64,000 nucleotides of DNA from Enterobacter phage phiEap-3: the sequence record KT321315.1; one strand, given 5' to 3'. A program made the translations under genes and the position numbers. This document shows positions 2,408 through 48,370 of the stretch, in pieces. Under the pieces are notes generated by a model that saw only the letters and a list, made by a program, of their open reading frames with translations, did no database searches and was not told where the DNA came from. The number at the start of each line of letters is the position of its first letter. Position 1 is the first letter of the stretch.

Positions 2408-3400
2408 ATGGCACAACAAAACTTGTATCGGTCGGTAATTACTGCAAAATTCCGAACCGAAAACTTGATGAACTTCAAAGATATGATCGGCGATGCCGCC
2501 GATCTAAACACGATTTATATGTCTATTGGGCGAACTGAATCATGGGCGGATAACGAATCCGACCCTAACTTTGCCCCGCCATATCCAAATGATAGCACCG
2601 ATGGTGTTAGTGATATGTGGACGCATATGATCGGGGCTACTAAAGTTCCTGGTGATATGATAGATGCAATTTTACCACGTAAAGACTGGGGTGATACTCG
2701 CTATCCAAACCCGAAAATCTTTTACTTTAACGATATTGTTGTTGTAAACACCGCGCCTTATAACCGTACTGATCCGGGTAAAGGTTGGATGGTTTATCGT
2801 GTAGTTGATGTTCCTGATATCGGTTCTTGCTCCATTTCGAGCATTACCGGAAAACTTGAATGTATCAGGATCGGCGGTATCTGGAGTCCGTCTCATGAAT
2901 CCAGTGAACCTCCACGCGGAGAAGCTAACGGGATCGACATGGGCGACGGCTATAAATGGGAATACCTCTACACAATCCCGCCAGATGTCGTGATCAACCG
3001 CTGTACGAACGAACATATCGTAGTTCCTTTCCCTGGCGAACTGGAAGAGGATCCGGTACGTTGGGGTTATGATAACGTGATTCAATGGTATCCAGGACAA
3101 TACGATCTAGTGTATCGGTTGAAGGTGAATTCAATGCGTTTTCGTGCGTACATGGATTCTCTTTTCTTCCCGCAATCTACGCTCCCTGGTAACAAAGGGT
3201 TCCGTCAGATAAGTATTATTGTAAACCCGTTGATTAAAAAGGCAAGCCCGACCGAACCTGAAAAGAAAGCAACTGGTGATTACTATAATGCTAACGCGCT
3301 TGAACCTGATTCCGGACGTATGATTTACATGGAAAACAGACAACCTATTATTCGCTCCCTTGATCAGACTGAGGAAGTGAGTATTGTATTCGAATTCTAA
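2408..3400 (+). CDS. 8: Baseplate wedge protein gp8
   Basis: 330 aa versus 334 aa in T4. The ATG overlaps the gp7 stop (TAAATG). Position is between gp7 and gp9. Confidence 0.75.
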   Translation: MAQQNLYRSVITAKFRTENLMNFKDMIGDAADLNTIYMSIGRTESWADNESDPNFAPPYPNDSTDGVSDMWTHMIGATKVPGDMIDAILPRKDWGDTRYPNPKIFYFNDIVVVNTAPYNRTDPGKGWMVYRVVDVPDIGSCSISSITGKLECIRIGGIWSPSHESSEPPRGEANGIDMGDGYKWEYLYTIPPDVVINRCTNEHIVVPFPGELEEDPVRWGYDNVIQWYPGQYDLVYRLKVNSMRFRAYMDSLFFPQSTLPGNKGFRQISIIVNPLIKKASPTEPEKKATGDYYNANALEPDSGRMIYMENRQPIIRSLDQTEEVSIVFEF

Positions 3401-6764: not shown

Positions 6765-8150
6765 ATGAGTAACAATACAATCAACCACGTAAGTGATAAA
6801 TCCATTTACGTGACATTTGACCCAACAGGTACTGATTGGCCTGATACCATAACCAACGTACAAGATGCGTTGGAAAAAATAGGTAGTTGGGCGCGTACTG
6901 ATACTGGGCTTCCTATCGCAACAACTTCTGTTCGTGGTATTGCTCAGATCGCAACCGAAGCTGATATTGACGCTGGCACGGATAACACTAAGATTGTTAC
7001 TCCGAAACTGTTAGCATACCGTATGCAGAACCCTAAAGCATCACAAACCGTATGGGGTTATACGAAGTATTCGACTGATGCGGAATCTACAACCGTAACT
7101 AACGATGCATCGTCTATTACTCCGCGATCACTGAACTATGTGTTCAATAACCGCAAAGGTACAGAATCGGTTTGGGGTTCTTCTAAAATCGCTACCACTG
7201 CACAGGCGGTTGCGGGTACAGATAACACTGTAACGATGACTCCGCTTAAAGTCAAGCAAGCGATCGCGTCTCTGGTTCCGGTTCAGTCAAGTGCGACCGA
7301 AAGCTCGCAAGGTCTGGTACAACTGGCAACAGTTGCACAGGTTCAGGCTGGTACGATCCGTGAAGGGTATGCAATTTCACCTTATACGTTTATTCGTTTA
7401 ACTGCAACTGAAAGCAACCTGGGCGTTATTCGTATCGCATCCCAGGCAGAAACGAACGCAGGGACTGATGACACCAAAGCAATTACCGCGAAAAAATTAA
7501 ATAATAGTCGCGCAACTGGTTCTCAATTCGGTGTTGTTAAATTAGCAACCACTGTAGGAAATGCAGCAAACACTGCACTTTCTTCTAATGCTAATGTATT
7601 ACCTAGCGATCGTAATGCGGTAATTAATGGTTCTCTTTATGAGAATAATGCAATATATAACAACAAATATCAGACGTGGACAGATCTTGATTGGCATTTC
7701 CCAGTAGGTGCTATTATCATGACGGGTTTCCAGACTGACCACGGCAGTTTGTATATTTGTGATGGACGTTCACTGAATAAAAATAATTACCCGTTACTGT
7801 TTGAGCGTATAGGTTATACATTTGGTGGTGGCGGCGATTGGTTTAACCTTCCAGACTGTCGAGGCGTTGCAGTACGTGGTCATGACCGTGGGCGTGGACT
7901 AAACCCTAATCGTGGGTATGGTACATATGAAGGCGATATGTTGGGCTGGCACGAACACCCATTACAGCTTATCTACCAGAACGGTGGCAACATTCCGAAA
8001 TGGCAAGCAGTTTACGAACTGAAAAGCGCCGAGAAGAATGACCAAAGCGCTCGCGTATTTGATGCTTCTATAACTAAAGCTACTGGTGTGGGCGGTGAAG
8101 AAACCCGCATGAAAAACATCGCATTAAACTACGTAATTCGTACTCAATAG
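6765..8150 (+). CDS. 12: Short tail fibre protein gp12
   Basis: Carries tandem 'xATxxxxGxxxxAT...NAGTDxTKAxTPKKL' repeats, which are also found at the N-termini of gp34 and gp37 in this window. Lies between gp11 and wac. Confidence 0.8.
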   Translation: MSNNTINHVSDKSIYVTFDPTGTDWPDTITNVQDALEKIGSWARTDTGLPIATTSVRGIAQIATEADIDAGTDNTKIVTPKLLAYRMQNPKASQTVWGYTKYSTDAESTTVTNDASSITPRSLNYVFNNRKGTESVWGSSKIATTAQAVAGTDNTVTMTPLKVKQAIASLVPVQSSATESSQGLVQLATVAQVQAGTIREGYAISPYTFIRLTATESNLGVIRIASQAETNAGTDDTKAITAKKLNNSRATGSQFGVVKLATTVGNAANTALSSNANVLPSDRNAVINGSLYENNAIYNNKYQTWTDLDWHFPVGAIIMTGFQTDHGSLYICDGRSLNKNNYPLLFERIGYTFGGGGDWFNLPDCRGVAVRGHDRGRGLNPNRGYGTYEGDMLGWHEHPLQLIYQNGGNIPKWQAVYELKSAEKNDQSARVFDASITKATGVGGEETRMKNIALNYVIRTQ

Positions 8151-24142: not shown

Positions 24143-24176
24143 TAGTATAACCCAACGGGGATAATATTCAATAGGT

Positions 24177-24205
24177 GGAGTAGGGAAACTTACTCCATCT
24201 TTTAA
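24177..24205 (+). terminator. Terminator after gp24
   Basis: GGAGTA-GGGAAACT-TACTCC followed by ATCTTTT. Confidence 0.55.
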
Positions 24206-24320
24206 TAATTATTATAATTAATATTAAATTAGATCTTGAATTTATAAATGATTTATGATAAAATTTATTAATTATAATTATTATAGATCAAATAATTTTT
24301 GAAATCAAGTAAAAATAAAT

Positions 24321-24349
24321 TTGATTTTATTAATTAGATCATGTATAAT
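24321..24349 (+). promoter_or_regulatory. Sigma70-like early promoter upstream of uvsY (TTGATT-17-TATAAT)
   Basis: -35 TTGATT and -10 TATAAT with a 17-nt spacer that contains a GATC. Confidence 0.5.
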
Positions 24350-24388
24350 TATTCTTTTAATAATATATTATATTAGATCAAATAAAAT

Positions 24389-24416
24389 TTGACTACAAAT
24401 TAATATAGTATATTAT
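24389..24416 (+). promoter_or_regulatory. Sigma70-like promoter upstream of uvsY (TTGACT-16-TATTAT)
   Basis: Consensus-like hexamers ~30 nt before the uvsY ATG. Confidence 0.45.
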
Positions 24417-24446
24417 AGATCAACTGGGTAAATTGGTGAGTATGTT

Positions 24447-25051: not shown

Positions 25052-25132
25052 ATGATTGGATACGGTGAAGGAATTACAGATCGTGATGAACGTCCAGATC
25101 TCTTAGAATCTGACGAACATCCTGATTTTTAG
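25052..25132 (+). CDS. 26-codon micro-ORF (uvsY.-2 position)
   Basis: GGAG ribosome-binding site 6 nt upstream of the ATG. Ends right before the late promoter at 25135. Confidence 0.25.
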   Translation: MIGYGEGITDRDERPDLLESDEHPDF

Positions 25133-25134
25133 GA

Positions 25135-25142
25135 TATAAATA
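25135..25142 (+). promoter_or_regulatory. T4-type late promoter TATAAATA heading a non-coding unit
   Basis: Exact octamer. No ORF with a ribosome-binding site before terminator 25473-25504. Confidence 0.6.
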
Positions 25143-25472
25143 CTATCGTAGGGCAAGGGCATGTTTACCGATGAATGCATTTTCATAATCGGATAAACCT
25201 ATGGCCTATATGGAATGCAACATATATTCGTGATTGGGATTTTTTTCTCAACCTGGAACCTTTAGGCTAACAGTGTGCAACGGCACGAACTACGATTATA
25301 CCACAGTACCCGAAAGGGGCTTGATAAAAGAATGCTGGATGATAGGCGTACTCTTTTGCGCCGTCCGATGGAGTTTACCTTCGGCGGGGTGATTGATAAC
25401 ATACCTTCGATCAAGGGCATGTGAATAGAATAGCCAGAATAGTACAGCACTGGCGTTAAGCAAATGTACAAA

Positions 25473-25504
25473 AGCCCCTTCCTTTCGGTTGGGGCTTCTT
25501 TTTT
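25473..25504. terminator. Bidirectional terminator between the non-coding unit and uvsW.1
   Basis: AGCCCC-(12 nt)-GGGGCT flanked by AAAA and TCTTTTTT. Confidence 0.65.
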
Positions 25505-25736
25505 AGAACTTTTCTTCTTCTCCGCTTTCGAGTTCGGCCTTTAATTCTTCGGCTCGACCTTTCAGCGCATCGCGCATAGAAATATCGTCTGACGGTGCAA
25601 CATCAACTTCTTTTACACGATTTTTGTAATATTTTTCAAGCTCTTTAAGGCCGTCCATAGTACGGCAAGAGGCGACCTTGCTCATGAAATCATCAATAGC
25701 CGCCTCATAAAGTCGAAAATCGTTGAAACTCTTCAT
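25503..25736 (-). CDS. uvsW.1: UvsW.1 (small UvsW-associated protein)
   Basis: 77 aa versus 76 aa in T4. Lies immediately 3' of uvsW on the same strand. Confidence 0.7.
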   Translation of the reverse strand: MKSFNDFRLYEAAIDDFMSKVASCRTMDGLKELEKYYKNRVKEVDVAPSDDISMRDALKGRAEELKAELESGEEEKF

Positions 25737-25744
25737 TTTAACCT

Positions 25745-27244
25745 CTAAATTTCGATTTGTTTGATCACGTAGTCAAACTTTTCTTCATTGTAAATGCGTA
25801 CTCGTTCGATCGCGTGTTTCATACCATAGTTTTTGTATGAATATTTATTTTTAGCATTTTTGGACTTTGCCAGCGTTGCTAAGTTATCAACCAAATCCCA
25901 AACAGTAGCAAGAGATTTAGAATCATGTTTACGCAGTACGCGCCCAATTGACTGTTTGACTATAACAGCAGATTTGCAAGGATGTCCGAAGATTATGTGA
26001 TGCAGGTTCTTAACAGAAATACCTGTACTCAGTACACCAATAGAACCGATTACGATCAGCCCCTTCGTTGATTCCGCGATCCGTTTCATTTCGTTTCGCT
26101 CATCAATTCCCGTTTCCCCAGAAATGTATACAACGTTGTCATATACCTTTTTGAGTTGCTCATACAGCCATTTACCATGTTTGATCTGATTGAACATCAC
26201 AAACACGTTTTCATCTTTTTCCCTTGCCAGTTTCAACGCCAGCTTACAGATCCATGCGTTACGCCTGGTATGCGATGTTATATACTTGATTTCGCTTTGG
26301 TAATCAGCCCCCTTCATTTTCTTAATCTCATCCTCTTTATATCTCATGAAGATGGTATTAATTCGAAGGTTGGTAACTTGACCTTCCTGCATCAACCGAT
26401 TTGTATCAACTGGCTTGAAGATTTGACCAAAAGCGCCAATGTATTGCATCATGTTTGCTTTGCCTTCTTTCAGAGAACCAGAAAGGCCAAACTTGAAAAT
26501 ACACTGATCCATTGTGTTGATGATCTTCTGTATGCTTTGTCCGGTTGATTTGTGGCATTCATCCACCATCAAACACATGAACTGCTGAAACCACTCAGGA
26601 GGCATTTTAACAGCCGATTGCCACGTAGACACGTAGATCAATGCATTACTGTTTTTAGCAGTTCCTGACCGTATTCCAAGCATTGCCTCGCGAGGTAAAA
26701 GGCGATAGTTGACGATATCACCGATCATCTGATCAACAAGGGCAGTTGTTGGGACAATGATTAGTACTTTGCCTGTGTAATTTTCCAGACACCAACGAGA
26801 TATCAATCCCTGAATAAGAGATTTACCCGCTGACGTTGGGAGGTTAAGCACAGCACGGCGGTTTTTAATCGCATGAAACACCGATTGTTTTTGATACCAA
26901 TACGGATCAATTTGCTTGTTTCCGTCGTATACTGGGTGTTCTTCTAACCACTTGTCAAAATCTGGCTGGGTAATTTCTTCTGTTTCGTGGATCTTAGGAT
27001 CCATCCAGATAGAATACCCGCGAGACTCCGCGAATTTTGTTACAAGATAGGCTAAACCGTAGGGCAGTTTCCCGTTATAGTCCATCAAGTATATGTAGCC
27101 GTTCCATCCACCATATTTGTATTTTGCCTGGTACTGATAACCTGGCGGCTGGAAGCTGAAATAGTCGCGCAATTCATAGACTATGTTAGCCTCTGCCTGA
27201 ATCTGCACATGACTAGTGTTAAGGAATTTGACTTCGATATCCAC
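25745..27244 (-). CDS. uvsW: UvsW SF2 DNA/RNA helicase
   Basis: 499 aa versus 503 aa in T4. 'NLPTSAGKS' Walker A, 'DECH' box, 'VLIIVPTTAL' and 'TVWDLVD' are collinear with T4 UvsW. Confidence 0.9.
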   Translation of the reverse strand: MDIEVKFLNTSHVQIQAEANIVYELRDYFSFQPPGYQYQAKYKYGGWNGYIYLMDYNGKLPYGLAYLVTKFAESRGYSIWMDPKIHETEEITQPDFDKWLEEHPVYDGNKQIDPYWYQKQSVFHAIKNRRAVLNLPTSAGKSLIQGLISRWCLENYTGKVLIIVPTTALVDQMIGDIVNYRLLPREAMLGIRSGTAKNSNALIYVSTWQSAVKMPPEWFQQFMCLMVDECHKSTGQSIQKIINTMDQCIFKFGLSGSLKEGKANMMQYIGAFGQIFKPVDTNRLMQEGQVTNLRINTIFMRYKEDEIKKMKGADYQSEIKYITSHTRRNAWICKLALKLAREKDENVFVMFNQIKHGKWLYEQLKKVYDNVVYISGETGIDERNEMKRIAESTKGLIVIGSIGVLSTGISVKNLHHIIFGHPCKSAVIVKQSIGRVLRKHDSKSLATVWDLVDNLATLAKSKNAKNKYSYKNYGMKHAIERVRIYNEEKFDYVIKQIEI

Positions 27245-27314
27245 TATGTGTATCCTATATACGGTTTATATGAATATTTATAGGCTAAATAATGATAAAC
27301 ATTGGAGAAATACA

Positions 27315-27893
27315 ATGAGTATTGATTACGAAAAGGTTGAAGGTTTCAAAGCCTTAGAACAAAAAGAAGCCAAATTACAGCTTGCTACCTACGCGCAAGA
27401 AACGTTTGATGTCAAACTGAACCGCCAGAAGTCATTCGAAAATATGCTTGCTGATCTGGAAGCTGCTGTACCAGCAGAAAAGCCGGAACTGTTGATCGAC
27501 TCCCCTGATCCGGAAATTGCTACATACGAAGGCGAACAATCCGTTCCTGGTGTTGCTCCGGAAGTTGCAGACCAGATTGAAATTGTTCCTGACGCTCTAC
27601 AAGCTCCTGTAAGCGATTCTGAGACGGTTTCTGATGAACTGGCATGGATGGAAGGGTTTACCCCGTCTATCATCATGATGGGCCGCTCTGTTTCGAATAC
27701 TGGCTTTTATACGTGTCCGTATTGGATCTATGATTGGATGAAACAAAATCCGGATTGGTATAAGCACCCTGATGGTTGCCCTCATTATTCAGCGCGTCAA
27801 ACCCTCAAGTCGCTGGCGTGGTACATGCACCGTGATGGGATGGTTACTGTACGGGAAACCAGAAACAGCCAGTTCGACACGTTCAAAAAATAA
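27315..27893 (+). CDS. Hypothetical protein (acidic N-terminal half, Cys/His/Trp-rich C-terminus)
   Basis: The internal ATG carries a GGAGAAATACAATG ribosome-binding site. Divergent from uvsW. Confidence 0.5.
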   Translation: MSIDYEKVEGFKALEQKEAKLQLATYAQETFDVKLNRQKSFENMLADLEAAVPAEKPELLIDSPDPEIATYEGEQSVPGVAPEVADQIEIVPDALQAPVSDSETVSDELAWMEGFTPSIIMMGRSVSNTGFYTCPYWIYDWMKQNPDWYKHPDGCPHYSARQTLKSLAWYMHRDGMVTVRETRNSQFDTFKK

Positions 27894-48129: not shown

Positions 48130-48370
48130 ATGTTACGGCTGTATTGAAGCTCGGAAATTACTTGATGAGCATGGATTAGAATACGAATTTTATTCTGTTC
48201 TAAAGCCAGCAAATAACAGTGTGGGGTTTGATTACGATCGACCCCGCATTGAAGAGTTAGCGAAACGTGTTCGTAGTCGAAGCATGGCATTTACTTACCC
48301 TCGGATCTTTGTAGATGGTAATTTTATTGGCGGTTATATGCAATTGAAAGAGTATTTGGGTGAAGCATGA
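48089..48370 (+). CDS. Glutaredoxin-like protein (NrdH/Grx, CYGC active site)
   Basis: 'MKIEIYGIPESLHKCYGCIEARKLL...RIFVDGNFIGGYMQLKEY'. GAAGGAAAG ribosome-binding site. Start lies 41 nt inside the upstream ORF. Confidence 0.6.
   Translation: MKIEIYGIPESLHKCYGCIEARKLLDEHGLEYEFYSVLKPANNSVGFDYDRPRIEELAKRVRSRSMAFTYPRIFVDGNFIGGYMQLKEYLGEA

Follow-up and report, generated by a model that had tools for sequence, protein, structure and literature searches.

What does Enterobacter phage phiEap-3 encode in the long spacer between its uvsY operon and the convergently transcribed uvsW.1 gene? We addressed this question in a 64,000-nt stretch of the phage genome (record KT321315.1; the whole stretch is called the window below, and positions refer to it). 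The source is a Slopekvirus-type T4-like phage, with Klebsiella phages of the KP15/KP27/Matisse group as its nearest relatives. At 370 nt (25133-25502), the spacer is the longest non-coding interval in the window, as an initial annotation made from the sequence had stated; its remark that all other spacers measure 0-80 nt was incorrect, the second-longest being a 304-nt spacer at 24143-24446, upstream of uvsY. A seeming gap of 237 nt at 48130-48366 proved to be coding on inspection. We consider it probable that the interval is the gene for a non-coding, highly structured and accessory RNA of ~355 nt, which comprises two domains, acts through its fold and is made late in infection. The features of this unit are as follows.

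25135-25142, + strand: T4-type late promoter box TATAAATA, an exact match at positions -13 to -6, right behind the stop codon of a micro-ORF (open reading frame)
25148, + strand: predicted transcription start, a G, the sixth base past the box
25146-25295, + strand: module A, a six-helix RNA domain of ~150 nt, from consensus folds, covariation and a covariance model
25146-51/25290-95, + strand: module A closing helix, P1
25156-75/25182-207, + strand: module A long hairpin
25208-12/25221-25, + strand: module A hairpin
25227-32/25284-89, + strand: module A helix P4
25235-39/25246-50, + strand: module A helix
25251-55/25271-76, + strand: module A helix
25296-25305, + strand: A-B linker UUAUACCACA, which holds a degenerate ATTATA plus 5 nt (from 25295) where phages with module B in first place have TAAATA plus 5 nt
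25306-25469, + strand: module B, a domain of ~165 nt with five helices and an H-type pseudoknot, from alignment, consensus fold and covariation
25309-25319, + strand: module B 5' GAAA hairpin CCCGAAAGGGG, stem 25309-11/25316-18
25334-36/25345-47, + strand: module B 3-pair helix, invariant
25352-71/25378-96, + strand: module B 15-pair helix with the conserved loop ARUUUA
25404-07/25414-17, + strand: module B 4-pair helix
25433-37/25450-54, + strand: module B 5-pair helix, whose loop enters the pseudoknot
25442-46 (GUACA) with 25465-69 (UGUAC), + strand: module B H-type pseudoknot with an A-rich third loop
25470-25504, both strands: bidirectional intrinsic terminator AAAAGCCCCUUCCUUUCGGUUGGGGCUUCUUUUUU, common to the RNA unit and the convergent uvsW.1

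Evidence for the two folds came from homologous loci, where a structure and covariance check, proposed in the initial annotation, revealed strong covariation on the + strand. For module B, we aligned eight distinct sequences from about five lineages. They aligned readily from column 43 on; the 5' part (25306-25350) aligns poorly between genera, and only the hairpin and the invariant 3-pair helix are claimed there. Among 256 alignment cells, 97.7% were canonical, and 15 of 32 pairs had changed on both sides. Sliding the pairing partners by 1-3 columns reduced pairing to 37-43% with 0-3 compensatory pairs, and none of 500 shuffles reached the observed values. With its invariant G-U pairs, module B scored 97.7% pairing on the + strand versus 86.3% on the - strand. 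The pseudoknot covaries as well, as Phynn carries GACAC/GUGUC in place of GUAC/GUAC, giving two compensatory pairs. An alternative closure suggested by RNAalifold, pairing the 5' GUAC with the 3' GUAC, is broken in Phynn, while the pseudoknot pairing covaries there; a closing helix of CUUGAU with GUUAAG, seen in the single-sequence fold, is restricted to Slopekvirus and is not kept in Pseudotevenvirus. Both were discarded. Stems of module B vary, with loops and junctions being invariant (GGCGUA, the ARUUUA loop, UUGRUAANAUAC, AGAAU and the A-rich loop 3). A covariance model built for this domain (R1) scored 175 bits at 25303-25472 and detected a single copy in the window and one per locus.

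Module A behaved alike. Copies at the uvsY locus from four lineages were 97.3% paired, with 10 of 46 pairs compensatory. Including copies from a second locus, the rIII-30.9 spacer of six Tevenvirinae-type phages, resulted in an alignment of ten sequences with 98.0% of pair cells canonical and compensatory changes in 20 of 35 pairs, as compared to 30-48% pairing and 1-4 compensatory pairs in a control slid out of register. P1 is fully exchanged between subgroups (CGUAG/CUACG, AUAGC/GCUAU, UAAAC/GUUUA), as is P4 (UUCGUG/CACGAA versus CUUAUC/GAUAAG), and both helices show 3-4 pair types. The unpaired core is conserved (GGCAAGGGCAUG, GGCCUAU and CCUGGAACCUUUAGGCUAACAGUGUGCAAC), and the single-sequence fold yielded z = -2.9. 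A covariance model derived from the ten-sequence alignment (R2) scored 144 bits at 25144-25297; it found no second copy in the window and nothing in loci lacking module A, T4 included. The window carries all features that define the family, that is, closure by P1, the helices P1 and P3-P6, and the cores GGCAAGNGCAUG, GGCCUAU and CCYGGAACCUUUARGCUAACRGUGUGCAAC. Together, the compensatory changes place both domains under purifying selection for their fold.

Several smaller elements pointed out in the initial annotation were reassessed against these folds. The GNRA hairpin it had placed near 25311 was found as the GAAA hairpin at 25309-25319. Its loop CCGAAAGG is indeed complementary to the terminator loop CCTTTCGG, but a conserved interaction is unsupported, because the loop changes in relatives (UUGU, UUU, UGUAAU) while the terminator stays constant. 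CGCCG and CGGCG, proposed as a 5-bp stem, are both present in the sequence; covariation, however, backs another register, which pairs CCG 25361-63 with CGG 25385-87 and CCGA 25365-68 with UCGG 25381-84. Similarly, the direct repeat is real and 11 nt long (CAAGGGCATGT), but its core AAGGGCATGT lies at 25155-25164 and 25413-25422 instead of 25156 and 25425, and a repeat of this length was reached in 23 of 2000 shuffles. None of the three features (the repeat, the loop-loop complementarity and the CGCCG/CGGCG register) is a conserved element.

The two families differ in range. Using the spacer of phage JC221 as blastn query, we recovered a 27-38 nt core of module A, GGAACCUUUAAGCUAACGGUGUGCAAC, in hundreds of other T4-like phages. 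A full homolog resides on the coding strand of the rIII-30.9 intergenic spacer (~350-400 nt) of many Tevenvirinae-type phages, among them Gaprivervirus VR26 and SP18, Jiaodavirus JD18, Kanagawavirus IME523, a Dhakavirus, two Tequatrovirus isolates and SonariX (L079:1103-1250, L080:1099-1247, L081:1099-1247 and L083-L087; L numbers designate the loci compared). Querying with the VR26 copy matched 407 phage records, most of them either unannotated or labeled as hypothetical protein; in 396, the match covered 80% or more of the query. The module A family is kept in about 400 genomes at 90-99% identity. The rIII-30.9 spacer of T4 itself (L082:3042-3285, - strand, 244 nt) lacks module A. It contains small hairpin modules common to the VR26, JD18 and JC221/ENT3 arrays, without an Rfam match; among these are a GTTCCCCTTGAGGGCTTG hairpin resembling the 5' hairpin of module B and an element similar to module E (see below), GGTTATCC...GTTAAATATCC.

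Module B, in turn, was confined to Slopekvirus, Pseudotevenvirus and two unclassified relatives, and its model had no match in the Tevenvirinae loci. Apart from a single random hit, scans of metagenomes and bacterial genomes with a 23-base module B pattern returned only Slopekvirus-like contigs and one phage-like contig from a bacterial assembly. The contig in question, NZ_JBHSCL010000010.1 (L070; Flagellimonas marina assembly, 178,077 bp), carries a Pseudotevenvirus-type uvsY / module B / uvsW.1 arrangement at 7150-7900 (181.6 bits) and is probably phage DNA within the bacterial assembly.

The interval is framed by the signals of a transcription unit. T4-type late promoters consist of an 8-bp box at -13 to -6, the first positions of which tolerate some change, and do not require a -35 element (PMC1524935, PMC2988020). 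The initial annotation had located an exact late box at 25135-25142 directly behind the last micro-ORF, and both the coordinates and the adjacency to the stop codon were confirmed. Since the box spans -13 to -6, transcription would begin at G25148. The window contains nine exact boxes as compared to 3.8 expected. Seven of these stand 0-44 nt ahead of an ORF start on the same strand, and an eighth (48706) coincides with the beginning of a long ORF, the mechanical call of which starts slightly ahead of the box; among the nine, only the one at 25135 has no ORF behind it. Relatives retain the arrangement. In P60_7, GAP161 and JC221, TAAATA is found 6-9 nt ahead of module A; its distance to the G of module B's GUACCC is exactly 5 nt wherever B comes first or follows module C. 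The five intervening bases vary (CTAGC, GATGT, GAAGT, CTGGT, CATGT), and the spacing from TAAATA to the module is fixed in at least eight lineages though the spacer bases differ. In arrays that place B behind A, the box has a degenerate sequence (ATTATA in the window); judging from a reading of the A-B linker alongside M1, KP15, RB43 and Kiwi, ATTATA may represent a decayed promoter. This comparative evidence is good, and the 25135 box is likely to be a functional late promoter.

At the other end, the strong hairpin shared with uvsW.1 was confirmed at 25470-25504, with folding energies of -16.2 kcal/mol on the + strand and -17.5 kcal/mol on the - strand (z = -2.9 and -3.9) and U-tracts on both strands (UUCUUUUUU on the + strand, UUUUGU on the - strand). 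Its T-run overlaps the uvsW.1 stop codon, and a bidirectional terminator after uvsW.1 is described in the literature as conserved in T4-like phages. An exact 22-mer of the terminator, GCCCCTTCCTTTCGGTTGGGGC, recurs in several copies per genome in KP15-, RB43- and related phages (L009, L011, L039, L042, L045, L049, L050 and others); it also occurs in some Tequatrovirus-size contigs, and the window has a single copy. A further exact late box at 27275-27282 (- strand), 31 nt upstream of the uvsW start, falls within a called + strand ORF (27216-27893), the true start of which is probably further downstream. Because of this box, uvsW and uvsW.1 are probably late as well, converging on the same terminator as the RNA unit.

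Regarding coding potential, the interval is non-coding. It holds ORFs of more than 30 codons (69, 55, 52 and 49 amino acids, on both strands), the presence of which qualifies an earlier claim; as that claim had it, though, none possesses a ribosome-binding site, and all start with TTG or GTG. No interval ORF is conserved across relatives, in line with the expectation that homologous regions would share no protein frame, and Pfam and PHROG searches with these ORFs returned zero family matches. Relatives differ in the interval by 1- and 2-nt indels and by A-run length polymorphism, variable columns distribute as 17/23/21 over the three codon positions, that is, without codon periodicity, and open frames are broken in Margaery, L010 and Phynn. 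Two minus-strand frames are stop-free across module B in the window, M1 and RB43. GenBank entries show hypothetical proteins over the modules in M1 (L003:1530-1706, gp227c), Kiwi (L004:1475-1839, CDS0229/0230) and JC221 (L002:2417-2593 and 2894-3013, JC221_170/171). Those over module B (M1 gp227c, Kiwi CDS0230) use a TTG start tight against or inside the terminator stem, and this stem is the only purine-rich stretch ahead of the annotated minus-strand TTG starts. As none of the annotated coding sequences (CDSs) is conserved between relatives, they are probably gene-caller artifacts.

How the interval evolves became apparent from its relatives. Of 50,697 phage records searched by blastn, 180 share part of the interval and four share most of it (P60_7, mtp5, K41P2, JC221). 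We read the spacer in about 25 relative loci, between the end of the micro-ORF and the identical terminator, and found it to be a mosaic of discrete, shuffled modules. A+B is present in the window, P60_7 and K41P2, with mtp5 giving the same full-length blastn match, and JC221 has A+B with a module C upstream and a module E downstream. The remaining arrays are B alone (M1, KP15, RB43), C+B (Kiwi, L019), A+D (GAP161), C+D (L018, L020) and B+E (ENT3), and T4-type phages (L025-L030) have no spacer, hence no module, at the junction of uvsY operon and uvsW.1. Identities of A and B to JC221/RB43 amount to 81-84%, with uvsY and uvsW.1 at 76-78%, and module B is 72% identical to its Phynn counterpart, about as uvsY and uvsW.1 are (72-74%). 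Module A, in turn, is 99.3% identical to that of the Pseudotevenvirus GAP161, whereas the flanking genes are 77-78% identical, which argues for recent transfer of the module between genera. The modules are exchangeable cassettes, which are gained, lost, swapped and transferred horizontally between near-identical phages.

Side findings concern the other modules of the arrays. Module C (L004:1528-1672 in Kiwi, L010:470-612, L002:2362-2510) starts with GCCAUAGGCA, and the stop codon upstream forms part of its closing helix. In ENT3 and JC221, B is followed by module E (L072:524-650, L002:2855-2985), and mini-module D (L008:1390-1560, L020, L022, L023) starts with UUAGAAUAG. Compensatory changes were seen for C and E in small alignments. 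At the same locus, Phynn carries a 69-nt transfer RNA (tRNA)-like element (L006:689-757) annotated as tRNA-Ser, with a G3-U70 acceptor pair and a T-arm, which reaches 40 bits against the ends of the Rfam transfer-messenger RNA (tmRNA) model (threshold 47) and may be an alanine-type tRNA-like or mini-tmRNA-like gene among the RNA modules.

The identities of the genes bordering the cassette were confirmed. Those on the + strand are UvsY (PF11056), a DUF2685 protein and a 26-codon micro-ORF; UvsW.1 followed by UvsW converge on them from the - strand. The immediate neighbors are:

25052-25132, + strand: last micro-ORF of the uvsY operon, 26 codons, ending in DERPDLLESDEHPDF; PHROG 6828 (E=1.2e-9); upstream border of the RNA cassette
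25503-25736, - strand: uvsW.1; Pfam UvsW-1, PF11637 (E=5.5e-18); stop codon within the terminator T-run

In all relatives compared, micro-ORF homologs ending in DERPDL or DEHPDF sit before the RNA array. This peptide motif is encoded by a 17-nt direct repeat in the micro-ORF end (25085-25101 / 25112-25128, GATGAACGTCCAGATCT / GACGAACATCCTGATTT, 27 nt apart); each relative's array starts right behind such a motif, and relative L016 shows a deletion exactly between the two repeat copies. The 304-nt spacer upstream of uvsY, which we take to be the positional counterpart of the T4 uvsY promoter and origin region, is A+T-rich and lies between a capsid vertex gene and uvsY. Between 24000 and 26500, we counted 14 sigma-70-like promoter matches versus 8.2 expected, the majority of them inside this spacer.

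Exchange by way of conserved flanks has precedent in the PeSL cassettes of T4-type phages, in which an early promoter and a stem-loop accompany the shuffling of protein-coding ORFs in hyperplastic regions (PMC2839356, PMC4122927). Here as there, the segments subject to insertion, deletion or swapping among close relatives lie between conserved motifs, namely a promoter and a multi-copy stem-loop terminator; in contrast to PeSL cassettes, what is shuffled is structured RNA, and a late-type promoter takes the place of the early one. By analogy, the conserved flanks (the 17-nt micro-ORF repeat and the multi-copy terminator) could mediate module exchange as proposed for PeSL.

Neither module could be assigned to a known RNA family. 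Rfam 15 (4227 models, covering riboswitches, ribozymes, group I/II introns, 6S, RNase P and tmRNA) gave chance-level matches only on the locus at E up to 10, no match on 12 homologous loci and none at gathering level across the whole window, and ARAGORN predicted no tRNA or tmRNA anywhere in the window. No sequence similarity was detected between the modules and T4 rnaC/rnaD, nor between the modules and E. coli genomes, which were checked for host-RNA mimicry. Blastn and the two covariance models revealed no further copies of modules A-E elsewhere in the 64 kb. Beyond the known clade, a broad motif scan of viral contigs returned random matches only; a scan with a module A 17-mer added one match, also random. 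Within the remaining 63.5 kb of the window, complementarity to the interval extends to 12 nt at most, a length that shuffled controls reach as well. With no + strand gene downstream and a junction to the terminator that varies between relatives, the locus does not have the characteristics of a riboswitch. Three resemblances noted by eye, a CsrA sponge (GGA motifs), mimicry of the tRNA-Lys anticodon loop (UUUA loop) and likeness to c-di-GMP-I or preQ1 aptamers, are not claimed, the motifs being not conserved or without a model match. A search of the accessible literature uncovered no published account of these RNAs, their core sequences or the locus.

Comparison with known systems was nevertheless instructive. 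The T4 RNAs rnaC and rnaD (species 1 and 2) are likewise structured non-coding phage RNAs of 120-140 nt that lie beside RNA genes and have no established function. They are located within the tRNA cluster and excised from a tRNA precursor, and rnaC has a tRNA-like T-arm; the modules described here, in contrast, are not tRNA-like, come with a late box of their own and are bounded downstream by an intrinsic terminator. Small RNAs (sRNAs) of the DapZ type, which derive from 3' untranslated regions (UTRs), similarly use a promoter at the end of the upstream operon, share the operon's intrinsic terminator and carry a U-tail. Those sRNAs are short and act via a conserved single-stranded seed with Hfq, whereas the phage RNA would comprise ~355 nt with 11 covarying helices and a pseudoknot, and it matches other parts of the window in antisense no better than expected by chance. 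The 3' end of module B resembles the H-type aptamers preQ1-I and SAM-II in topology, in its A-rich loop 3 (GUUAAGCAAAU) and in having loops more conserved than stems. It differs from them in its loop sequences, in the absence of an Rfam riboswitch match (E up to 10), in the placement of the pseudoknot within a 165-nt domain, and in lacking a downstream gene or a conserved expression platform. GOLLD, ROOL and the phi29 pRNA, finally, are elaborate phage RNAs with support from covariation, for which the fold is known or presumed to be the basis of action. Unlike these, the modules have no Rfam match, are far smaller than GOLLD and ROOL and show no sign of a pRNA-like packaging role.

On this basis, we propose the following model. 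Late in infection, phage gp55-type RNA polymerase would start at ~25148, six bases past TATAAATA; read-through from the uvsY operon may contribute transcript, and transcription would end at the bidirectional terminator (25470-25504). The product is predicted to fold into two autonomous domains, with A comprising six helices and its own terminal helix and B comprising five helices and a 3' H-type pseudoknot. Given that the stems change in a compensatory manner and that loops and junctions do not change, the RNA most likely acts via its three-dimensional fold, by binding a protein or a small ligand or by catalysis; action by base-pairing with a target or by translation is unlikely. A late sRNA had been the initial reading. 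A non-coding unit running from a late box to a bidirectional terminator agrees with it, but a single, simple sRNA does not, given two separately closed domains that occur independently elsewhere. Since modules are present, absent, swapped or exchanged between near-identical phages, the role would be accessory, dispensable and host-dependent, for example that of a decoy or sponge in host takeover or counter-defense, for which action in trans would be expected. A decoy or counter-defense role is suggested only by analogy, as phage tRNAs counter retron and Septu systems (10.1101/2023.03.15.532788, PMC13096335).

Among the competing explanations, a cis role at messenger RNA (mRNA) 3' ends is the main rival, although we regard it as improbable. 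The modules would then be 3'-UTR elements of the uvsY-operon mRNA (in Tevenvirinae, of rIII mRNA) that stabilize the 3' end or insulate convergent late units. Arrays in both loci do end a transcription unit directly ahead of a terminator, module C of the relatives begins at the upstream ORF's stop codon without a promoter of its own, no late box accompanies module A in Tevenvirinae, and uvsW's own box at 27275-27282 (-) would bring convergent late transcription to both sides of the terminator. However, protection of a 3' end needs no more than a plain terminator hairpin, so that six-helix and pseudoknotted domains with invariant loops would be over-elaborate; the late box at a fixed distance from the module 5' end implies a modules-only transcript, and T4-type phages manage without any module at the junction. 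All other alternatives appear less likely than a cis role. It is doubtful that the modules are selfish or relic cassettes, that is, mobile structured elements such as intron-like or ribozyme-bearing remnants which recombine between flanks at little or no benefit. Such elements would account for presence, absence and swapping among near-identical phages, for a module A that is 99.3% identical across genera, for the conserved flanks (17-nt micro-ORF repeat, multi-copy terminator) and for the terminal helix closing every module, but compensatory substitutions show long-term purifying selection on the folds, the module A family persists in about 400 genomes at 90-99% identity, and we found no homing endonuclease, transposase or intron core, with Rfam group I/II and ribozyme models giving nothing at E up to 10.

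Very unlikely, in our view, is an antisense circuit in which the RNA, or a ligand-sensing fold, tunes read-through of a leaky terminator, yielding a transcript antisense to uvsW.1/uvsW that controls the replication-mode switch, as the initial annotation had contemplated. The pseudoknot 3' strand stops 1-2 nt short of the terminator stem in the window, AAGGGGCUU (25314-22) could, as read from the sequence, pair with the terminator 5' strand AAGCCCCUU (25472-80), and uvsW is presumably transcribed late from the opposite strand. Yet KP15, RB43, Margaery, ENT3 and JC221 have 30-130 nt of other hairpins or modules between B and the terminator, making this junction variable; the terminator is strong and no + strand gene lies downstream of it, complementarity is at chance level, the hairpin loop varies when the terminator does not, and the module A family also occupies an unrelated locus. 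Even less credible is a DNA-level element, such as a replication origin, a recombination hotspot or a protein-binding array with hairpins in single-stranded DNA. Recombination genes adjoin the interval, G-T wobble pairs are possible in single-stranded DNA, and a T4 origin lies at uvsY. That origin is at the uvsY promoter, however, not downstream of the operon; the pairing preference for one strand, a pseudoknot with conserved loops and framing by promoter and terminator are typical of an RNA product, and other phages carry members of the module A family at another genomic position. Small protein genes on the minus strand, as annotated in GenBank relatives (M1 gp227c, Kiwi CDS0229/0230, JC221_170), could explain why two frames are stop-free across module B in the window, M1 and RB43 and why gene callers predicted CDSs. 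With TTG starts preceded by no purine-rich stretch other than the terminator stem, 1-/2-nt indels, an A-run polymorphism, no codon periodicity, frames broken in Margaery, L010 and Phynn, no family matches and changes that are compensatory in RNA helices, this reading is close to refuted.

The reading we prefer, a late-made, accessory two-domain RNA, has to accommodate several points that weigh against it. Tevenvirinae copies of module A in the rIII-30.9 spacer have no late-promoter box upstream; the late promoter is therefore no inherent feature of the module A family, and the RNA might function within the 3' end of a longer mRNA. A cis role would also fit the position of the arrays, which in both loci close a transcription unit immediately ahead of a terminator. 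The decoy or counter-defense idea derives solely from the accessory-like distribution of the modules. A literature search found no transcriptome for this phage group. Finally, about five (B) and about six (A) independent lineages underlie the covariation, which was judged by pair counts and controls, without a tree-aware statistic. The genome comparison shows that the interval is non-coding and structured on the + strand, that its modules are mobile cassettes with relatives in other phages, and that conserved promoter and terminator motifs frame it; from this, we infer late transcription from 25148, action in trans and a decoy or counter-defense role.

Our analysis adds at least two undescribed structured RNA families to the T4-like phages. 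Phage genomes are annotated almost wholly as protein genes, and the interval described here is either blank in GenBank or filled with spurious hypothetical proteins. The about 400 isolates carrying module A infect Escherichia, Shigella, Klebsiella, Yersinia, Enterobacter and other hosts, and many of them are candidates for phage therapy. Because the modules behave as accessory cassettes, they are good candidates for RNA-only functions in host interaction or counter-defense. The question is experimentally tractable, as E. coli K-12 is a host of several carriers, which are amenable to engineering, helices and pseudoknot offer precise targets, and natural A+B, B-alone and C+B variants exist in otherwise near-identical phages. 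More speculatively, though with a chance that we consider worth naming, RNA-only accessory genes may form a new functional class. They would be organized as exchangeable folded-RNA arrays at transcription unit ends, built from module A (about 400 genomes) and, within the Slopekvirus/Pseudotevenvirus group, from modules B, C, D and E, in which each fold binds or inactivates a host factor, a defense protein or a signaling nucleotide, or acts as a new ribozyme. If true, such arrays would be the RNA counterpart of phage anti-defense protein islands, and the one in the window would be switched on by its own late promoter.

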